This document shows positions 1,414-10,377 of a stretch of 10,377 bases of DNA, in pieces (position 1 is the first letter of the stretch; each line of letters opens with the position of its first letter). Under the pieces are notes generated by a model. The model was not told the origin of the DNA. It did no database searches and saw only the letters and a list, made by a program, of their open reading frames with translations. Source of the stretch: a virus (lineage: Duplodnaviria > Heunggongvirae > Uroviricota > Caudoviricetes); IMG/VR virus record IMGVR_UViG_2690316246_000004; one strand, 5' to 3'. A program made the translations under genes and the position numbers.

Positions 1414-2157
1414 ATGACACAGACAGAATCAGCGATTCTGGCGCACGCCCGGCGATGTGCGCCAGCGGAGTCGTGTGGCTTCGTGGTAAGAACGCCGGAG
1501 GGAGACAGGTATCTTCCCAGCGAGAATATCTCCGGTGAGCCGGAGGAACGGTTCCGGATGGCTCCGGAGGACTGGCTGCGGGCACAAATGCAGGGTGAGA
1601 TTGTGGCGCTGGTCCACAGTCATCCCGGTGGTCTGCCCTGGCTGAGTGAGGCTGACCGGCGGCTGCAGGTGCAGAGTGATTTGCCGTGGTGGCTGGTCTG
1701 CCGGGGGGCGATTCACAAGTTCCGCTGTGTGCCACATCTTACCGGGCGGCGCTTTGAGCACGGGGTGACGGACTGTTACACGCTGTTCCGGGATGCTTAT
1801 CATCTGGCAGGGATTGAGATGCCGGATTTTCATCGCGGGGATGACTGGTGGCGTAACGGTCAGAATCTCTATCTTGACAATATGGAGGTGACGGGTTTTT
1901 ACCGTGTCGCACTGACAGAGGCACAGCCGGGCGATGTGCTGCTGTGCTGTTTTGGTTCATCGGTGCCGAATCATGCCGCCATTTACTGCGGTGACGGCGG
2001 GCTGCTGCACCATATTCCTGAACAACTGAGCAAACGAGAGAGGTACACCGACAAATGGCAGCGACGCACACACTCCCTCTGGCGTCACCGGGCATGGCGC
2101 GCATCTGCCTTTACGGGGATTTACAACGATTTGGTCGCCGCATCGACCTTCGTGTGA
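1414..2157 (+). CDS. K: Tail tip assembly protein K (allele 1), 247 aa, JAB/MPN (JAMM) plus NlpC/P60 domains
   Basis: ATG 1414 lies 4 nt after the L stop. JAMM motif H-S-H-x7-S-x2-D (HSHPGGLPWLSEAD) at nt 1615-1656. NlpC/P60-like Cys (GVTDCYTLF, nt ~1774) and His (VPNHAAIY). The C-terminal 199 aa correspond to lambda K as I recall its classical annotation. Confidence 0.9.
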   Translation: MTQTESAILAHARRCAPAESCGFVVRTPEGDRYLPSENISGEPEERFRMAPEDWLRAQMQGEIVALVHSHPGGLPWLSEADRRLQVQSDLPWWLVCRGAIHKFRCVPHLTGRRFEHGVTDCYTLFRDAYHLAGIEMPDFHRGDDWWRNGQNLYLDNMEVTGFYRVALTEAQPGDVLLCCFGSSVPNHAAIYCGDGGLLHHIPEQLSKRERYTDKWQRRTHSLWRHRAWRASAFTGIYNDLVAASTFV

Positions 2158-2242
2158 AAACGGGGGCTGAAGCCATCCGGGCACTGGCCACACAGCTCCC
2201 GGCGTTTCGTCAGAAACTGAGTGACGGCTGGTATCAGGTGCG
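2055..2242 (+). CDS. I: Tail assembly protein I, 5' fragment (62 codons), cut off by the N-run
   Basis: Starts MAATHTLPLASPGMARICLYGDL..., identical to the starts of the complete I copies at 2822 and 4395. Overlaps the K 3' end out of frame, as in lambda. Ends at the gap. Confidence 0.75.
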
Positions 2243-2253
2243 NNNNNNNNNNN
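2243..2253. other. Run of 11 N (scaffold gap / unresolved join)
   Basis: Ns in the sequence. The flanks are discontinuous: I codon 62 upstream, mid-K downstream. Confidence 0.99.
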
Positions 2254-2924
2254 TAAGAACGCCGGAGGGGGAAAGATATTTCCCCTGCGTGAATATCTCC
2301 GGTGAGCCGGAGGCGTATTTCCGTATGTCGCCGGAAGACTGGCTGCAGGCAGAGATGCAGGGTGAGATTGTGGCGCTGGTCCACAGTCATCCCGGTGGTC
2401 TGCCCTGGCTGAGTGAGGCCGACCGGCGGCTGCAGGTGCAGAGTGATTTGCCGTGGTGGCTGGTCTGCCGGGGGGCGATTCACAAGTTCCGCTGTGTGCC
2501 ACATCTTACCGGGCGGCGCTTTGAGCACGGGGTGACGGACTGTTACACGCTGTTCCGGGATGCTTACCATCTGGCGGGGATTGAGATGCCGGATTTTCAT
2601 CGTGAGGATGACTGGTGGCGTCACGGTCAGAATCTCTATCTGGATAATCTGGAGGCCACAGGGCTGTATCAGGTGCCGTTGTCAGCGGCGCAGCCGGGCG
2701 ATGTGCTGCTGTGCTGTTTTGGTTCATCGGTGCCGAATCATGCCGCCATTTACTGTGGTGACGGCGAGCTGCTGCACCATATTCCTGAACAACTGAGCAA
2801 ACGAGAGAGGTATACCGACAAATGGCAGCGACGCACACACTCCCTCTGGCGTCACCGGGCATGGCGCGCATCTGCCTTTACGGGGATTTACAACGATTTG
2901 GTCGCCGCATCGACCTTCGTGTGA
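2254..2924 (+). CDS. K: Tail tip assembly protein K (allele 2), 5'-truncated at the gap
   Basis: Resumes at the position equivalent to nt ~1487 of K allele 1 (RTPEGERYFPCVNISGEPEAYFRMSPEDW...). Contains the same JAMM and NlpC/P60 motifs. TGA at 2922-2924. Confidence 0.8.
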
Positions 2925-3463
2925 AAACGGGGGCTGAAGCCATCCGGGCACTGGCCACACAGCTCCCGGCGTTTCGTCAGAAACTGAGTGACGGCTGGTA
3001 TCAGGTGCGCATTGCCGGGCGTGATGCAGGTGAAACCGAATTGTCTGCCCGTCTTAATGAGCCGCTGGCAAATGGTGCAGTGATCCACATAGTACCGCGT
3101 CTGGTGGGAGCTAAAAGTGGCGGTGTGTTTCAGGCGGTGCTGGGGGCGGCTGTTATGGCGGTTGCTATATGGATGCCGGGGGTAGGAATTATGGCGAGTA
3201 ATCTGCTGTTTTCTCTCGGTGCCAGTATGACGCTTGGCGGTGTTGCACAGATGCTGGCACCGAAAGCCAGAACTCCCCGTACACAGACAACGGATAACGG
3301 TAAGCAGAACACGTATTTCTCGTCACTGGATAACATGGTTGCCCAGGGCAATGTTCTGCCCGTTCTGTACGGTGAAATGCGCGTGGGGTCACGTGTGGTT
3401 TCTCAGGAGATCAGCACGGCAGACGAAGGGGATGGTGGTCAGGTTGTGGTGATTGGTCGCTGA
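2822..3463 (+). CDS. I: Tail assembly protein I (allele 2), 213 aa, ubiquitin-like N-domain ending in Gly-Gly
   Basis: Complete ORF overlapping the K 3' end by 103 nt out of frame. Diglycine at residues 100-101 (nt 3119-3124). Glycine-rich hydrophobic middle; C-terminus GEMRVGSRVVSQEISTADEGDGGQVVVIGR is shared with the allele-3 copy. Confidence 0.88.
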   Translation: MAATHTLPLASPGMARICLYGDLQRFGRRIDLRVKTGAEAIRALATQLPAFRQKLSDGWYQVRIAGRDAGETELSARLNEPLANGAVIHIVPRLVGAKSGGVFQAVLGAAVMAVAIWMPGVGIMASNLLFSLGASMTLGGVAQMLAPKARTPRTQTTDNGKQNTYFSSLDNMVAQGNVLPVLYGEMRVGSRVVSQEISTADEGDGGQVVVIGR

Positions 3464-3481
3464 TGCAAAATGTTTTATGTG

Positions 3482-3510
3482 AAACCGCCTGCGGGCGGTT
3501 TTGTCGTTTA
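3482..3510 (+). terminator. Stem-loop with U-rich tail in the I-J intergenic region (candidate weak terminator or RNA-stability hairpin)
   Basis: aaaccgcc-tgcg-ggcggttt is a perfect 8-bp stem, followed by tgtcgttt. Lies 14 nt upstream of the J start. Confidence 0.35.
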
Positions 3511-3523
3511 TGGAGCGTGAGGA

Positions 3524-3880
3524 ATGGGTAAAGGCAGCAGTAAGGGGCATACCCCGCGCGAAGCGAAGGACAACCTGAAATCCACGCAGTTGCTGAGTGT
3601 GATTGATGCCATCAGCGAAGGGCCGGTTGACGGTCCGGTGGATGGATTAAAAAGCGTGCTGCTGAACGGTACGCCGGTCCTGGACAGCGAGGGGAAGACA
3701 AACTTTTCCGGTGTTACGGTGGTGTTCCGTGCAGGTGAGCAGGAGCAGACACCGCCGGAGGGTTTTGAATCCTCCGGCTCCGAGACGGTGCTGGGTACGG
3801 AAGTGAAATATGACACGCCGATCACCCGGACCATCACGTCGGCAAACATCGACCGTCTGCGCCTGACCTTCGGTGTGCAG
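3524..3880 (+). CDS. J: Host specificity / central tail fibre protein J, 5' fragment (119 codons), cut off by a single N
   Basis: MGKGSSKGHTPREAKDNLKSTQLLSVIDAISEGPV... matches the J start seen again at 5127. Bases 3632-3880 are identical to 5927-6175. Confidence 0.8.
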
Positions 3881-3881
3881 N
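3881..3881. other. Single N marking a discontinuity (J 5' region joins directly to mid-K)
   Basis: N in the sequence. Upstream is J codon 119; downstream is K at the position equivalent to nt 2309. Confidence 0.95.
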
Positions 3882-4497
3882 GGAGGCGTATTTCCGTATG
3901 TCGCCGGAAGACTGGCTGCAGGCAGAGATGCAGGGTGAGATTGTGGCACTGGTCCACAGCCACCCCGGTGGTCTGCCCTGGCTGAGTGAGGCCGACCGGC
4001 GGCTGCAGGTGCAGAGTGATTTGCCGTGGTGGCTGGTCTGCCGGGGGGCGATTCACAAGTTCCGCTGTGTGCCACATCTTACCGGGCGGCGCTTTGAGCA
4101 CGGGGTGACGGACTGTTACACGCTGTTCCGGGATGCTTACCATCTGGCGGGGATTGAGATGCCGGATTTTCATCGTGAGGATGACTGGTGGCGTCACGGT
4201 CAGAATCTCTATCTGGATAATCTGGAGGCCACAGGGCTGTATCAGGTGCCGTTGTCAGCGGCGCAGCCGGGCGATGTGCTGCTGTGCTGTTTTGGTTCAT
4301 CGGTGCCGAATCATGCCGCCATTTACTGTGGTGACGGCGAGCTGCTGCACCATATTCCTGAACAACTGAGCAAACGAGAGAGGTATACCGACAAATGGCA
4401 GCGACGCACACACTCCCTCTGGCGTCACCGGGCATGGCACGCATCTGCCTTTACGGGGATTTGCAACGATTTGGCCGCCGCATCGACCTTCGTGTGA
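3882..4497 (+). CDS. K: Tail tip assembly protein K (allele 3), 5'-truncated at the N
   Basis: Same frame and motifs as allele 2, with synonymous nucleotide differences and a divergent C-terminus (WHASAFTGICNDLAAASTFV). The ORF-track start at 3898 is an internal Met. Confidence 0.8.
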
Positions 4498-5066
4498 AAA
4501 CGGGTGCCGAAGCCATCCGGGCGATGGCCACACAGCTCCCTGCGTTTCGTCAGAAGCTGAGCGACGGCTGGTATCAGGTGCGTATTGCCGGGCAGGATGT
4601 TAGCACGTCCGGATTAACGGCACAGTTACATGAGGCTCTGCCTGACGGCGCTGTGATTCATATTGTTCCCAGAGTCGCCGGGGCCAAGTCAGGTGGTGTA
4701 TTCCAGATTGTCCTGGGAGCAGCCGCCATTGCCGGATCATTCTTTACCGCCGGAGCCACCCTTGCAGCATGGGGGGCTGCCATTGGTGCCGGTGGTATGA
4801 CCGGCATTCTGTTTTCTCTCGGTGCCAGTATGGTGCTCGGCGGTGTGGCTCAGATGCTGGCACCGAAAGCCAGAACTCCCCGCACACAGACAACGGATAA
4901 CGGTAAGCAGAACACCTATTTCTCCTCACTGGATAACATGGTTGCCCAGGGCAATGTTATGCCTGTTCTGTATGGTGAAATGCGCGTGGGGTCACGTGTG
5001 GTATCTCAGGAGATCAGCACGGCAGACGAAGGGGACGGTGGTCAGGTTGTGGTGATTGGTCGCTGA
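4395..5066 (+). CDS. I: Tail assembly protein I (allele 3), 223 aa
   Basis: Complete ORF, same length as lambda gpI, overlapping K by 103 nt. Differs from allele 2 by a 10-residue indel in the glycine-rich hydrophobic segment. Confidence 0.9.
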   Translation: MAATHTLPLASPGMARICLYGDLQRFGRRIDLRVKTGAEAIRAMATQLPAFRQKLSDGWYQVRIAGQDVSTSGLTAQLHEALPDGAVIHIVPRVAGAKSGGVFQIVLGAAAIAGSFFTAGATLAAWGAAIGAGGMTGILFSLGASMVLGGVAQMLAPKARTPRTQTTDNGKQNTYFSSLDNMVAQGNVMPVLYGEMRVGSRVVSQEISTADEGDGGQVVVIGR

Positions 5067-5126
5067 TGCAAAATGTTTTATGTGAAATCGCCTCCGGGCG
5101 GTTTTATCGTTTATGGAGCATGACGA

Positions 5127-5915
5127 ATGGGTAAAGGCAGCAGTAAGGGGCATACCCCGCGCGAAGCGAAGGACAACCTGAAGTCCACGCAGCTGCTGAG
5201 TGTGATCGATGCCATCAGCGAAGGGCCGGTTGAAGGTCCGGTGGATGGATTAAAAAGCGTGCTGCTGAACAGTACGCCGGTGCTGGACAGTGAGGGGAAT
5301 ACCAACATCTCCGGCGTCACGGTGGTGTTCCGGGCAGGTGAGCAGGAGCAGTCACCGCCGGAGGGATTTGAATCCTCCGGCTCCGAGACGGTGCTGGGTA
5401 CGGAAGTGAAATATGACACGCCGATCACCCGGACCATCACGTCGGCAAACATTGACCGACTGCGTTTTACCTTCGGTGTACAGGCACTGGTGGAAACCAC
5501 CTCAAAGGGAGACAGGAATCCGTCTGAAGTTCGCCTGCTGGTTCAGATACAGCGTAACGGTGGCTGGGTGACGGAAAAAGACATCACCATTAAGGGCAAA
5601 ACCACTTCGCAGTATCTGGCCTCGGTGGTGGTGGGTAACCTGCCGCCGCGCCCGTTTAATATCCGGATGCGCAGGATGACACCGGACAGCACCACAGACC
5701 AGCTGCAGAACAAAACGCTCTGGTCGTCGTACACCGAAATCATCGATGTGAAACAGTGCTACCCGAACACGGCACTGGTCGGCGTACAGGTGGATTCGGA
5801 GCAGTTCGGCAGCCAGCAGGTGAGCCGTAATTATCATCTTCGCGGGCGCATTCTGCAGGTGCCGTCGAACTATAACCCGCAGACGCGGCAATACAGCGGT
5901 ATCTGGGACGGAACG
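5127..5915 (+). CDS. J: Host specificity protein J (allele 3), 5' fragment (263 codons), cut off by the N-run
   Basis: Same start as 3524, with substitutions ([17 protein letters not shown] versus [17 protein letters not shown]). Ends at the gap at a position equivalent to nt 6605 of the downstream J. Confidence 0.85.
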
Positions 5916-5926
5916 NNNNNNNNNNN
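5916..5926. other. Run of 11 N (scaffold gap / unresolved join)
   Basis: Ns in the sequence. Upstream is J codon 263; downstream restarts at J codon ~37. Confidence 0.99.
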
Positions 5927-8900
5927 GGTCCGGTGGATGGATTAAAAAGCGTGCTGCTGAACGGTACGCCGGTCCTGGACAGCGAGGGGAAGACAAACTT
6001 TTCCGGTGTTACGGTGGTGTTCCGTGCAGGTGAGCAGGAGCAGACACCGCCGGAGGGTTTTGAATCCTCCGGCTCCGAGACGGTGCTGGGTACGGAAGTG
6101 AAATATGACACGCCGATCACCCGGACCATCACGTCGGCAAACATCGACCGTCTGCGCCTGACCTTCGGTGTGCAGGCACTGGTGGAAACCACCTCAAAGG
6201 GTGACCGGAATCCGTCGGAAGTCCGCCTGCTGGTTCAGATACAGCGTAACGGTGGCTGGGTGACGGAAAAAGACATCACCATTAAGGGCAAAACCACTTC
6301 GCAGTATCTGGCCTCGGTGGTGGTGGGTAACCTGCCGCCGCGCCCGTTTAATATCCGGATGCGCAGGATGACACCGGACAGCACCACAGACCAGCTGCAG
6401 AACAAAACGCTCTGGTCGTCGTACACCGAAATCATCGATGTGAAACAGTGCTACCCGAACACGGCGCTGGTCGGCGTGCAGGTGGATTCAGAGCAGTTCG
6501 GTAACCAGCAGGTGAGTCGCAATTATCATCTTCGCGGGCGCATTCTGCAGGTGCCGTCGAACTATAACCCGCAGACGCGGCAATACAGCGGTATCTGGGA
6601 CGGAACGCTTAAGCCAGCATACAGCAACAACATGGCCTGGTGTCTGTGGGACATGCTCACTCATCCGCGCTACGGCATGGGGAAACGTCTTGGTGCGGCA
6701 GATGTGGACAAATGGGCGCTGTATGTCATCGGCCAGTACTGCGACCAGTCAGTGACGGACGGATTTGGCGGCACGGAGCCGCGCATCACCTGTAACTCTT
6801 ACCTGACCACACAGCGTAAGGCGTGGGATGTTCTCAGTGATTTCTGCTCGGCGATGCGCTGTATGCCGGTATGGAACGGACAGATGCTGACGTTCGTGCA
6901 GGACCGACCGTCGGATAAGGTGTGGACCTATAACCGCAGTAATGTGGTGATGCCGGACGATGGCGCGCCGTTCCGCTACAGCTTCAGCGCCCTGAAGGAC
7001 CGCCATAATGCCGTTGAGGTGAACTGGATTGACCCGGATAACGGCTGGGAGACGGCGACAGAGCTTGTGGAGGATACGCAGGCCATTGCCCGTTACGGTC
7101 GTAATGTCACGAAGATGGATGCCTTTGGCTGTACCAGCCGGGGGCAGGCACACCGCGCCGGGCTGTGGCTGATTAAAACGGAACTGCTGGAAACGCAGAC
7201 CGTGGACTTCAGCGTGGGCGCAGAAGGGCTTCGCCATGTACCGGGTGATGTCATTGAAATCTGCGATGATGATTATGCCGGTATCAGCACCGGTGGTCGC
7301 GTACTGGCGGTGAACAGCCAGACCCGGACGCTGACGCTCGACCGTGAAATCACGCTGCCGTCCTCCGGTACCACGCTGATAAGCCTGGTTGACGGAAGTG
7401 GCAATCCGGTCAGCGTGGAGGTCCAGTCCGTCACCGACGGCGTGAAGGTGAAAGTGAGCCGGGTTCCTGACGGCGTTGCAGAATACAGCGTGTGGGGGCT
7501 GAAGCTGCCGACGCTGCACCAGCGATTGTTCCGCTGCGTGAGTATCCGTGAGAACGACGACGGCACGTATGCCATCACCGCCGTGCAGCATGTGCCGGAA
7601 AAAGAGGCCATCGTGGATAACGGGGCACACTTTGACGGTGACCGGCGCGGCACGGTGAATGGTGTCACGCCGCCAGCGGTGCAGCACCTGACTGCCGAAG
7701 TCACCGCAGACAGCGGGGAATATCAGGTGCTGGCGCGATGGGACACGCCGAAGGTGGTGAAGGGTGTGAGCTTCCTGCTTCGCCTGACCGTGGCAGCGGA
7801 CGACGGCAGTGAGCGGCTGGTCAGCACAGCCAGGACGACGGAAACCACATACCGCTTCAGGCAGCTGGCGCTGGGGAATTACAGTCTGACAGTCCGGGCG
7901 GTAAATGCCCGGGGGCAGCAGGGCGATCCGGCGTCGGTATCGTTCCGGATTGCCGCACCGGCAGCGCTGTCGCGGATTGAGCTGACGCCGGGCTATTTTC
8001 AGATAACCGCCACGCCGCATCTTGCGGTTTATGATCCGACGGTACAGTTTGAGTTCTGGTTCTCGGAAAAGCGGATTGCGGATATCAGGCAGGTTGAAAC
8101 CACAGCACGCTATCTTGGCACGGCGCTGTACTGGATAGCCGCCAGTATCAATATCAGGCCGGGCCATGATTATTATTTTTACGTTCGCAGTGTGAACACC
8201 GTTGGCAAATCGGCATTTGTGGAGGCCATCGGTCGGGCGAGCGATGATGCAGAAGGTTATCTGAATTTTTATAAAGGGTTGATCAATAAAACGCATCTCG
8301 GCAAGGAGTTGTGGACGCAGATTGATAACGGTCAGCTTGCGCCGGACCTGACTGAAATCAGGACGTCCATTACGAATGTCAGCAATGAAATCACGCAAAC
8401 CGTCAATAAAAAACTGGAAAATCAGAGTGCTGCAATCCAGCAGATACAGAAAGTTCAGGTTGATACAAATAATAACCTGAACAGCATGTGGGCTGTGAAG
8501 CTGCAACAGATGAAGGACGGACGCCTTTATATTGCGGGTATCGGTGCCGGTATTGAGAATACGCCAGCAGGAATGCAGAGTCAGGTGCTGCTGGCGGCAG
8601 ACAGGATTGCGATGATTAATCCTGCGAATGGCAACACAAAGCCGATGTTTGTTGGTCAGGGCGATCAGATATTCATGAACGACGTGTTCCTGAAATGCCT
8701 GACGGCTCCGACCATTACCAGCGGCGGTAATCCTCCGGCATTTTCCCTGACACCTGGCGGACGGCTGACGGCGAAAAATGCCGATATCAGCGGTAACGTG
8801 AACGCGAACTCCGGGACGCTCAACAACGTCACGATTAATAAGAACTGTCGGGTTCTGGGAAAATTGTCCGCGAACCAGATTGAAGGCGATCTCGTTAAAA

Positions 8901-9298
8901 CAGTGGGCAAACCTTTCCCACGGGACTCCCGGGCACCGGAGAGGTGGCCATCAGGGACCATTACCGTCAGGGTTTATGACGATCAGCCGTTTGATCGGCA
9001 AATTGTTATTCCCGCGGTGGCGTTTCGCGGTGCTAAACATGAGCGGAAGAATAACAATATTTATTCGTCATGCCGCCTGATAGTGAAGAAAAACGGTGCT
9101 GAAATTTATAACCGAACGACCCTGGATAATACGCTGATATATACGGGTGTTATTGATATGCCTGCCGGTCACGGTCACATGACGCTGGAGTTTTCTGTAT
9201 CGGCATGGCTGGTAAATGGCTGGTATCCCACAGCAAGTATCAGCGATTTGCTGGTTGTGGTGATGAAGAAAGCCACTGCAGGCATCACGATTAGCTGA
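5927..9298 (+). CDS. J: Host specificity / central tail fibre protein J, 5'-truncated by the gap (codon ~37 to stop); lambda-like C-terminal receptor-binding region
   Basis: Continuous 1123-codon frame. First 249 nt identical to 3632-3880. C-terminus ...[44 protein letters not shown] closely resembles my recollection of the lambda gpJ C-terminus (LamB-binding domain). The ORF-track start at 5933 is a GTG inside the protein. Confidence 0.9.
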
Positions 9299-9317
9299 AT
9301 TTTATAACCCAGATACG

Positions 9318-9343
9318 GGCACCAGAAATGGTGCCTTTTTTAT
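9318..9343 (+). terminator. Rho-independent terminator downstream of J
   Basis: ggcacc-agaaat-ggtgcc stem-loop followed by TTTTTTATT, about 20 nt after the J stop. Confidence 0.6.
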
Positions 9344-9365
9344 TGCAGAAAAGCGAGAGGTAATT

Positions 9366-9965
9366 ATGCGTAAAGTTTGTGCAGCCATTTTGTCCGCAGC
9401 CATTTGCCTGGCCGTATCCGGTGCGCCTGCATGGGCGTCTGAACATCAGTCCACGCTGAGCGCCGGGTATCTTCAGACCCATACTGATATGCCAGGCAGC
9501 GATGACCTGAAGGGCATTAACGTGAAATACCGTTATGAGTTTACGGACACGCTGGGGCTGATTACGTCATTCAGTTATGCCAACGCTGAAGATGAGCAAA
9601 AAACGCATTACAGCGATACCCGCTGGCATGAGGATTCCGTGCGTAACCGCTGGTTCAGCGTGATGGCGGGGCCGTCTGTGCGCGTGAATGAATGGTTCAG
9701 CGCGTATGCGATGGCGGGCGTGGCTTACAGCCGTGTGTCGACCTTCTCCGGGGATTATCTCCGCGTAACTGACAACAAGGGGAAAACGCACGATGTGCTG
9801 ACCGGAAGTGATGGCGGTCGCCACAGCAACACGTCTCTGGCGTGGGGGGCTGGCGTGCAGTTTAACCCGACCGAATCCGTGGCCATTGACCTTGCTTATG
9901 AAGGTTCCGGCAGTGGTGACTGGCGCACTGACGGTTTCATCGTGGGTGTCGGTTATAAGTTCTGA
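9366..9965 (+). CDS. lom: Lom outer-membrane protein (Ail/Lom/OmpX beta-barrel family), 199 aa
   Basis: GAGAGG RBS before ATG 9366. Signal-peptide-like N-terminus (MRKVCAAILSAAICLAVSGAPAWA, then SEHQ). Alternating beta-strand pattern; C-terminus GVGYKF ends in Phe, typical of outer-membrane beta-barrels. Position after J as in lambda. Confidence 0.9.
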   Translation: MRKVCAAILSAAICLAVSGAPAWASEHQSTLSAGYLQTHTDMPGSDDLKGINVKYRYEFTDTLGLITSFSYANAEDEQKTHYSDTRWHEDSVRNRWFSVMAGPSVRVNEWFSAYAMAGVAYSRVSTFSGDYLRVTDNKGKTHDVLTGSDGGRHSNTSLAWGAGVQFNPTESVAIDLAYEGSGSGDWRTDGFIVGVGYKF

Positions 9966-9992
9966 TTAGCCAGGTAACACAGTGTTATGACT

Positions 9993-10017
9993 GCCCGCTG
10001 GTTCAGGCGGGCTTTTT
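9993..10017 (+). terminator. Rho-independent terminator downstream of lom
   Basis: gcccgc-tggttcag-gcgggc stem followed by TTTTT; located between the lom stop and the stf start. Confidence 0.55.
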
Positions 10018-10028
10018 GTGGGGTGAAT

Positions 10029-10355
10029 ATGGCAGTAAAGATTTCAGGTGTACTGAAAGATGGGGCGGGTAAACCTGTCGTAAATTGTGCGATTGAACTG
10101 CGGGCCAGAAGAACCAGTCCGACCGTTGTGGCACACGTTGTTGCCACTTGCGTGACGGACAATAACGGTGCTTATGTGATTGAGGCTGAGCCGGGGTATT
10201 ACGAGGTTGCGCTTCACTGTAACGGCTGGCAGCCAACCCGTGTCGGGGATATTGATGTGGCACCGACTGATGCACCGGGGACACTGAACGCGTTTCTGAA
10301 TGCACCAAAGGATGGTGATTTACGTCCGGAGGTGATGAAGTGTCAGCGCCAGTGA
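10029..10355 (+). CDS. stf: Side tail fibre protein N-terminal domain homologue (lambda Stf-like), 108-aa ORF
   Basis: MAVKISGVLKDG... matches the lambda Stf N-terminus as recalled. The ORF stops at TGA 10353-10355, and the other two frames also stop within about 10 nt. I prefer ATG 10029 over the upstream ATG 9987, which lies inside the terminator stem. Confidence 0.6.
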   Translation: MAVKISGVLKDGAGKPVVNCAIELRARRTSPTVVAHVVATCVTDNNGAYVIEAEPGYYEVALHCNGWQPTRVGDIDVAPTDAPGTLNAFLNAPKDGDLRPEVMKCQRQ

Positions 10356-10377
10356 TATAAGACGGTAATTCGCCATT

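Follow-up and report, generated by a model that had tools for sequence, protein, structure and literature searches.

The question raised by this locus is whether three copies of the tail gene K in a row record three or more recombining lambdoid prophages, as the original prediction held, or whether their arrangement arose in assembly. The window, the whole stretch of 10,377 nt that was analysed, is a scaffold of four pieces (A, B, C and D) separated by N runs at 2243-2253, 3881 and 5916-5926. One N run stands at each of three discontinuities and none occurs elsewhere in the window. By piece, the gene order is H'-M-L-K-I', 'K-I-J', 'K-I-J' and 'J-lom-stf', and each piece restarts earlier in the lambda tail order. 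The N runs within the region were absent from the account given with the original prediction. The features along the window, with the alleles assigned to A-type and C-type, are as follows.

1-33, no strand: end of an IS-derived repeat, opening the scaffold on the left; these first 33 nt recur at several places in finished Shigella sonnei loci
7-372, forward: 3' remnant of H, the tape-measure gene (matched Escherichia coli annotation 'phage tail tape measure protein')
372-701, forward: minor tail protein M (Pfam PF05939, E = 5.7e-39)
711-1409, forward: minor tail protein L (Pfam PF05100, E = 8.3e-97)
1414-2157, forward: K copy 1, complete, 247 aa, A-type (Pfam Prok-JAB and NlpC/P60; exact protein in finished S. 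sonnei genomes)
2055-2242, forward: 5' fragment of I, whose ORF runs into N run 1; identical to 2822-3009 of piece B
2243-2253, no strand: N run 1, 11 N, joining piece A to piece B, after which the gene order steps back 756 nt
2254-2924, forward: K copy 2, 5'-truncated, without about 24 codons (Pfam NlpC/P60 and partial JAB)
2822-3463, forward: I, 213 aa, A-type (exact protein in the same finished locus as K copy 1)
3524-3880, forward: 5' fragment of J, A-type, its last 249 nt duplicated at the start of piece D
3881, no strand: N run 2, a single N, joining piece B to piece C
3882-4497, forward: K copy 3, 5'-truncated, without about 43 codons, C-type (piece C matches L013/L114/L115; JAB domain truncated by Pfam)
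4395-5066, forward: I, 223 aa, C-type (exact protein in CP023645 at 1.27 Mb)
5127-5915, forward: 5' fragment of J, C-type, with A-type states at 5606-5729 and 5876
5916-5926, no strand: N run 3, 11 N, joining piece C to piece D, after which the position in J steps back 681 nt
5927-9298, forward: J without its first 36 codons, A/D-type (Pfam GpJ domains; 99.2-99.7 % to finished loci)
9366-9965, forward: lom, Ail/Lom outer-membrane protein, intact (Pfam PF06316, E = 4e-129, full length)
10029-10340, forward: N-terminal part of stf, the side tail fibre gene, interrupted (Pfam PF08400)
10341-10377, no strand: end of an IS insertion, closing the scaffold on the right; in finished locus L005, IS21-type transposase genes come next

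Comparison with finished genomes accounted for each piece. Joining piece A (2242 nt), 3010-3880 of piece B (871 nt) and 6176-10377 of piece D (4202 nt) gives 7315 nt, which is the length of an IS-bounded locus present in finished S. sonnei genomes as a single collinear copy in the order M-L-K-I-J-lom. Identity to the finished locus was 99.91 % for piece A and up to 99.66 % for piece D, and the 3' 1067 nt of piece B (2814-3880) were 100 % identical to L008 and related loci. Piece C was 99.7 % identical to L013, L114 and L115. A single finished genome, CP023645, carries both parental modules about 680 kb apart, the A-type as L002/L008 and the C-type as L114, and its C-type I sits within a complete lambda-like head-tail cluster. 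Against these two parents, none of the four pieces had a private site among about 1500 informative sites. The K alleles are >90 % identical and would fall into one 90 % cluster, so that clustered protein databases could not tell exact alleles apart.

The module has the gene order of the lambda tail-tip module, M-L-K-I-J-lom-stf, and its domains (Phage_min_tail, Phage_tail_L, Prok-JAB with NlpC/P60, Lambda_tail_I, GpJ, Ail_Lom and phage_tail_N). K copy 1 shows the architecture of lambda gpK, with PF14464 (E = 5.5e-14) and PF00877 (E = 1.2e-11) in a gene between L and I. In contrast to lambda, the module is here a degraded prophage remnant: an IS interrupts H and an IS21-type element interrupts stf, and finished S. 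sonnei genomes show both insertions too. The H remnant, an ORF of 127 aa, adjoins an IS in the finished loci, and at the other side the likeness to the intact stf of L007 ends at window position 10340. E. coli prophage matches to the window begin only at query position 30-31, and a repeat at 8138-8619 of L002/L006 overlaps the window start, at 8588. The window ends thus reach 33 and 37 nt into IS repeats; ends lying slightly inside such repeats are usual for draft contigs.

The pieces overlap one another in content. The end of piece A aligned with the start of piece B over 756 nt at 93.8 % identity, and the end of piece C with the start of piece D over 681 nt at 95.7 %. The last 249 nt of piece B are repeated exactly at the start of piece D (3632-3880 and 5927-6175, 100 %), with piece C in between. 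K copies 2 and 3 are cut mid-codon and start directly after an N run, which marks them as contig ends rather than genes of a real array, and it is because of these gaps that their JAB domains are truncated. ORFs at the joins are chimeric or frame-broken; one of 289 aa at 2055-2924 is a fusion of I' and K across N run 1.

Independent sequences did not contain the joins. No HSP spanned any of the three junctions in 93 natural loci, and none of the junctions was present in 122 natural loci. The junction 2 pattern, with any base allowed at the N, was not found in the viral, genome or metagenome collections, the search engine having been confirmed to match a literal N. In complete E. coli genomes the junction halves occurred as separate pieces with spans of 757 and 681 nt, the normal collinear distance. 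The number of pieces and the record span served as the criterion here; a count at ≥80 % query coverage was discarded, as pieces ≤600 nt apart get joined. Exact look-ups of scaffold-specific ORFs recovered no scaffold-type arrangement, and that of a 199-aa ORF matched ordinary collinear modules only, with an internal Met called as the start.

A genuine tandem partial triplication of K-I-J' in the source chromosome was therefore rejected and we regard it as extremely improbable, given N runs at all three junctions, copies cut mid-codon with chimeric or broken reading frames, an end of piece B that repeats the start of piece D across piece C, and junctions seen nowhere else. Apart from the bare order of sequence in the window, it could draw on S. 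sonnei 75/02, in which the module is genuinely duplicated in two A-type copies, albeit with a period of 9.4 kb. Two K copies in one locus were found in 1 of the 122 natural loci, 9417 nt apart.

With N-delimited jumps in gene order, an exact rebuild of the finished locus, junctions absent elsewhere and both parental modules in one finished genome, all of them observed directly, the three K copies in a row are very probably a scaffolding artefact. A gap that separates duplicated copies is known to be typical of false duplications in assemblies (PMC9516828), and in the window an N gap lies between the copies, the finished assembly has a single collinear copy and the junctions are missing from independent sequences. 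As in that study, diverged copies stand side by side across a gap and yield spurious extra or truncated genes. The false duplications described there involve two haplotypes of a diploid, whereas here the copies would be paralogous prophage modules of a haploid bacterial genome. As a very probable assembly artefact, the juxtaposition of the K copies says nothing on genome structure.

As to the kind of assembler error, we infer the following course. The window would be an entire scaffold of a draft built from short reads of a S. sonnei-type genome, and its true content is probably one IS-bounded lambdoid tail remnant (H'-M-L-K-I-J-lom-stf', 7315 bp in finished genomes). The same genome would also carry at least one other lambda-like prophage with a tail module 90-97 % identical. 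From this repeat family the assembler may have yielded several overlapping contigs, which the scaffolder would then have strung in series with N spacers, neither merging nor separating them. The outcome would be a false triplication of K, duplication of I and of the 5' end of J, and K copies 2 and 3 cut at gaps. An attempt to derive the assembler's k from how far piece ends lie from the nearest variable sites was dropped, the distances being inconsistent.

The pieces might instead come from different strains in a mixed sample, such as a metagenome or a contaminated culture. Of 5,426 complete E. coli genomes, 4,400 contained lambdoid tail modules, with a median of 3 places per genome, and mixtures would readily give contigs of this kind. 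However, two loci of one finished genome account for all pieces with no private sites, the IS insertions that border the scaffold are those present in S. sonnei, and the metagenome collection did not contain the junction pattern, which together leave this explanation improbable.

While the arrangement is very probably artefactual, the divergence among the K copies is not random. Over the 691 nt common to all three, copies 1 and 2 differed at 35 sites, copies 1 and 3 at 48, and copies 2 and 3 at 13. The informative sites formed the pattern a7 c3 a28 c10, or 4 runs where about 20 were expected, and none of 200,000 permutations was as extreme; no site was private to copy 2. The patchwork described in the original prediction is thus real and does not reflect uniform divergence. 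Its details were also borne out, as all quoted peptide strings occur in the listed ORFs, copies 1 and 2 are identical over 2047-2242 (the 3' end of K and the 5' end of I), and copy 3 equals copy 2 mid-gene save for 3 synonymous sites, departing from it from the equivalent of 2099 onward and strongly in I.

Finished genomes likewise show A-type and C-type K and I diverging in blocks, and this is hence a real recombination mosaic. A trio of natural loci free of N was strongly mosaic (152 runs against 314 expected; 0 of 20,000 permutations), and both parental sequences, L002/L008 and L114, were identified together in CP023645. The differences in blocks between the types are best explained by past homologous recombination among lambdoid phages, a known process, and the earlier attribution of the patchwork to co-resident lambdoid phages agrees with these observations. 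Pervasive mosaicism and recombination between prophages of this group have been reported (Juhala et al. 2000; Asadulghani et al. 2009) and are reviewed in PMC6379469. The same alternation of identical and diverged blocks within and between genes, with co-resident prophages as partners, is known there; nothing essential is different here, and K, I and J of S. sonnei are another instance.

The number of prophages is a separate matter. Two or more co-resident lambdoid tail modules do exist. The copies must stem from different templates, and these are likely to be lambdoid prophages that share one genome, as in CP023645. To this extent the original interpretation is supported, but only two templates, A-type and C-type, have been demonstrated.

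The count turns on whether piece B is a third locus or a chimera made in assembly. Its 1627 nt are a perfect two-parent mosaic of the other two sequences, with 0 private sites. K copy 2 is C-type to 2813, except for an A-type patch at 2375-2390, and A-type from 2866; the main switch falls inside 52 nt that are identical in both parents (2814-2865). The sequences at the two switch points occur locally in nature, the 130-mer at 2766-2895 in 79 viral contigs and the 101-mer at 2340-2440 in 21. A B-specific 101-mer recovered no source record from the genome contig collection. Piece B as a whole had no match above 97.2 % in the 5,426 complete E. coli genomes and none above 97.1 % in the 122 loci, and the best natural match to its K part was 99.1 %.

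It is possible, at somewhat less than an even chance, that there are three real and separate tail modules, that copy 2 is a genuine third locus and that the original count of prophages was right, with the scaffold still an artefact. Such a locus could, for example, be a second A-type remnant with the 5' two-thirds of its K gene converted by a C-type prophage. The three K sequences do differ, the switch-point haplotypes exist in viral contigs, and S. sonnei 75/02 carries other lambdoid prophages besides its two A-type copies, among 23 predicted prophage regions. Conversion between modules also occurs in the lineage, as a C-type patch in J (7879-8107) sets the finished L005 and L002 apart. Against this stand the lack of any match above about 97 % for piece B as a whole, the value of only 99.1 % for its K part, and the lack of private sites, which a chimeric contig would show as well.

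At close to even chance, piece B and the small patches in pieces A, C and D are instead products of the assembler, which would have switched paths or popped bubbles between two paralogous modules in its graph, with two templates only. This is consistent with the absence of private sites from all four pieces and with the position of the main switch in a stretch shared by both parents. Where the pieces depart from the finished parents, they do so mostly at isolated SNPs or in short clusters with identical flanks (1734/1740; 5606-5729; 7036; 7156), at which both window copies show the same state, and some of the fine-scale patches could be bubble popping rather than biology. However, the A-type patch at 2375-2390 has just 20 and 29 identical bases on its two sides, and a switch in the graph would therefore need a small k. 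In J of piece D, C-type patches lie at 7036, 7156, 7518-7526, 7687-7693 and 7954-8107, and the last shares its right boundary with the finished L005, which suggests that it was inherited.

A bolder reading, which we consider unlikely, is that the degraded IS-bounded remnant and the intact lambda-like prophage about 680 kb away swap short tracts so often that gene conversion explains all divergence of the source strain from CP023645 at these loci; copy 2 would then be a real, recently converted third K locus. Its basis is that about 9.3 kb contain no private point difference but >40 converted sites, some of them in patches within the host-range gene J. Should the fine-scale patches be real, gene conversion between the defective prophage and the intact one could be quantified here on a small scale, with the receptor-binding protein J among the genes affected.

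The main value of these results lies in caution, as gene counts, 'tandem duplications' and chimeric ORFs taken from the scaffold would be false, and N runs, the single N included, need to be screened for before repeats are interpreted. For biology, the locus adds one more case of a mosaic, recombining lambdoid tail module in an IS-rich Shigella genome to what is already established. At DNA level, the tail module was about 96 % identical to phages 434 and mEp460 and to lambda-like phages.

The window carries the lambda tail-gene series, all on the + strand in its ORF listing, with three K-like stretches ending at 2157, 2924 and 4497, and every peptide string quoted for three K copies in the original prediction was found in it. 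The assigned genes were as follows.

M, + strand: Pfam PF05939
L, + strand: Pfam PF05100
K, + strand: Pfam Prok-JAB and NlpC/P60
I, + strand: Pfam PF06805
J, + strand: Pfam GpJ domains
Lom, 9366-9965: Pfam PF06316, Ail/Lom outer-membrane protein family
Stf N-terminus, 10029-10377 region, + strand: Pfam PF08400

The lom gene (9366-9965) was intact, at 199 aa, despite the IS-degraded prophage around it. The stf gene (in 10029-10377) was interrupted after ~104 codons; its match to the intact stf of comparison locus L007 stops at 10340, and the last 37 nt come from an inserted element, with IS21-type istA/istB following in finished locus L005. A multi-copy IS end makes up positions 1-33. Both edges (33 nt left, 37 nt right) therefore lie in IS repeats, and the window is an entire draft scaffold with a repeat at either end.

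N runs were present in the window DNA only at 2243-2253 (11 N), 3881 (1 N) and 5916-5926 (11 N), with runs of X in the translations. Divided at the Ns, the window falls into four pieces, A to D. Gene order steps back at every new piece relative to the end of the preceding one. The final 756 nt of piece A and the initial 756 nt of piece B were 93.8% identical, the start of piece C pairs with B from 2309, and the final 681 nt of C and initial 681 nt of piece D were 95.7% identical. The final 249 nt of B were 100% identical to the initial 249 nt of D, although C intervenes. K copies 2 and 3 each start directly 3' of an N run, lacking ~24 and ~43 codons, respectively. The ORFs that cross N are artificial chimeras, and spurious proteins are to be expected from automatic annotation of this scaffold, as ORFs read through the N runs.

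2055-2924: I'-N-K fusion ORF, 289 aa, across an N run
3524-3985: J'-N-out-of-frame K ORF, across the N
5127-5945: J'-N-J' ORF, across an N run

None of 514 HSPs spanned a junction when three junction queries were compared with 93 natural loci. The B/C junction, with any base allowed at the N, was not found in IMG/VR, GTDB representative genomes or JGI metagenomes by a pattern search that also matched a literal N. The A/B and C/D query halves matched complete E. coli genomes as two pieces, with spans of 757 and 681 nt, the normal collinear distances. Two K copies were seen in only 1 of 122 natural loci, 9417 nt apart. A gap between duplicated copies is a recognised hallmark of false duplication (PMC9516828). 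As the junctions were unseen in natural loci and collections and gaps separate the copies, the tandem layout of three K copies is very probably a scaffolding artefact.

Several finished genomes (4.8-4.9 Mb, IS-rich) encode, at one shared locus, proteins identical to K copy 1 and to the 213-aa I protein of B; gene order at this locus is an ordinary single M-L-K-I-J-lom. These genomes include Shigella sonnei 75/02 (CP019689), FDAARGOS_90 (CP014099) and 2015C-3794 (CP022455) (PMC5447701, PMC8627651). Identity to this locus was 99.91% for A, 100% for B 2814-3880 and 99.2-99.7% for D; A, B 3010-3880 and D 6176-10377 together make 7315 nt, exactly the finished-locus length. We term this IS-bounded remnant A-type. 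Piece C was 99.7% identical to three other loci (L013, L114 and L115), and its exact 223-aa I protein was found in CP023645 at ~1.27 Mb, within a complete lambda-like head-tail cluster (C-type); an A-type locus lies at ~1.95 Mb on the same chromosome. All sites differing between the two CP023645 loci were classified in each piece.

Piece A, 1-2242: A-type, with C-type states at 1734 and 1740
Piece B, 2254-3880: C-type 2270-2354; A-type 2375-2390; C-type 2420-2813; A-type 2866-3877
Piece C, 3882-5915: C-type, with A-type states at 5606-5729 and 5876
Piece D, 5927-10377: A-type apart from C-type patches at 7036, 7156, 7518-7526, 7687-7693 and 7954-8107

At each classified site, the state matched one of the two parents, and none of the four pieces had a private difference. 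Two co-resident templates are thereby demonstrated, in line with part of the original prediction, which had proposed three or more lambdoid prophages; a third template would be copy 2, if it is a real locus. Over the 691 nt common to the three K copies, pairwise differences were 35 (A-B), 48 (A-C) and 13 (B-C), and the informative sites ran a7-c3-a28-c10, none private to copy 2. The predicted patchwork is real and non-random, because these sites form 4 runs against ~20 expected, a value reached in 0 of 200,000 permutations.

Copy 2 may be a real third locus, a possibility to which we give somewhat less than an even chance. The switch-region haplotypes of B occur naturally, in 79 and 21 viral contigs; J of finished L005 differs from that of L002 (CP023645) by a C-type patch at 7879-8107 that has its right boundary in common with a D patch; and S. 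sonnei 75/02 has two A-type copies. No sequence more than ~97% identical to the complete B haplotype turned up anywhere searched. This, and the absence of sites private to B, fits a chimeric contig, to which we give slightly less than an even chance; the deviations from the parents are lone SNPs or short clusters, of a kind homogenised by assemblers.

A-type and C-type K/I ranged from 64% to 100% identity across 50-nt windows, and the same block structure was seen between loci within one finished genome. A natural, N-free locus trio was also strongly mosaic (152 runs against 314 expected; 0 of 20,000 permutations). That lambdoid phages are mosaic, and that prophages sharing a host recombine, has long been known (PMC6379469, a review that cites Juhala 2000 and Asadulghani 2009), and the mosaicism here is already-known lambdoid biology. 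The patchwork first noticed is confirmed and its interpretation partly supported; the tandem arrangement is very probably an artefact.

The tail modules were ~96% identical to phages 434, mEp460 and lambda-like phages. They are ubiquitous, with matches in ~4,400 of the 5,426 complete E. coli genomes searched; the median number of matching places per genome was 3 and the maximum 17. In S. sonnei 75/02, 23 prophage regions are predicted, several of which are lambdoid, and the matched locus lies in pp20/pp21. In its locus L006 (CP019689), 6873-11327 and 16290-20744 form a genuine IS-H'-M-L-K-I duplication of at least 4.4 kb (99.955% identity) with a period of 9417 nt in the finished genome; 75/02 therefore has two nearby A-type K genes. 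The second copy of this segment is absent from CP023645 (L002). Between L005 and L002, the J patch spans ~230 nt, one genome having the J states of the C-type prophage, which suggests natural gene conversion between remnant and intact prophage within the Ig-like region of J. In a draft-contig relative of the C-type locus (L014/L116, AAUYHQ010000006), Mu-type com/mom genes at ~4957-5848 immediately precede a tape-measure gene shortened at its 5' end, indicating that a different upstream module has been joined to the same tail-tip genes.
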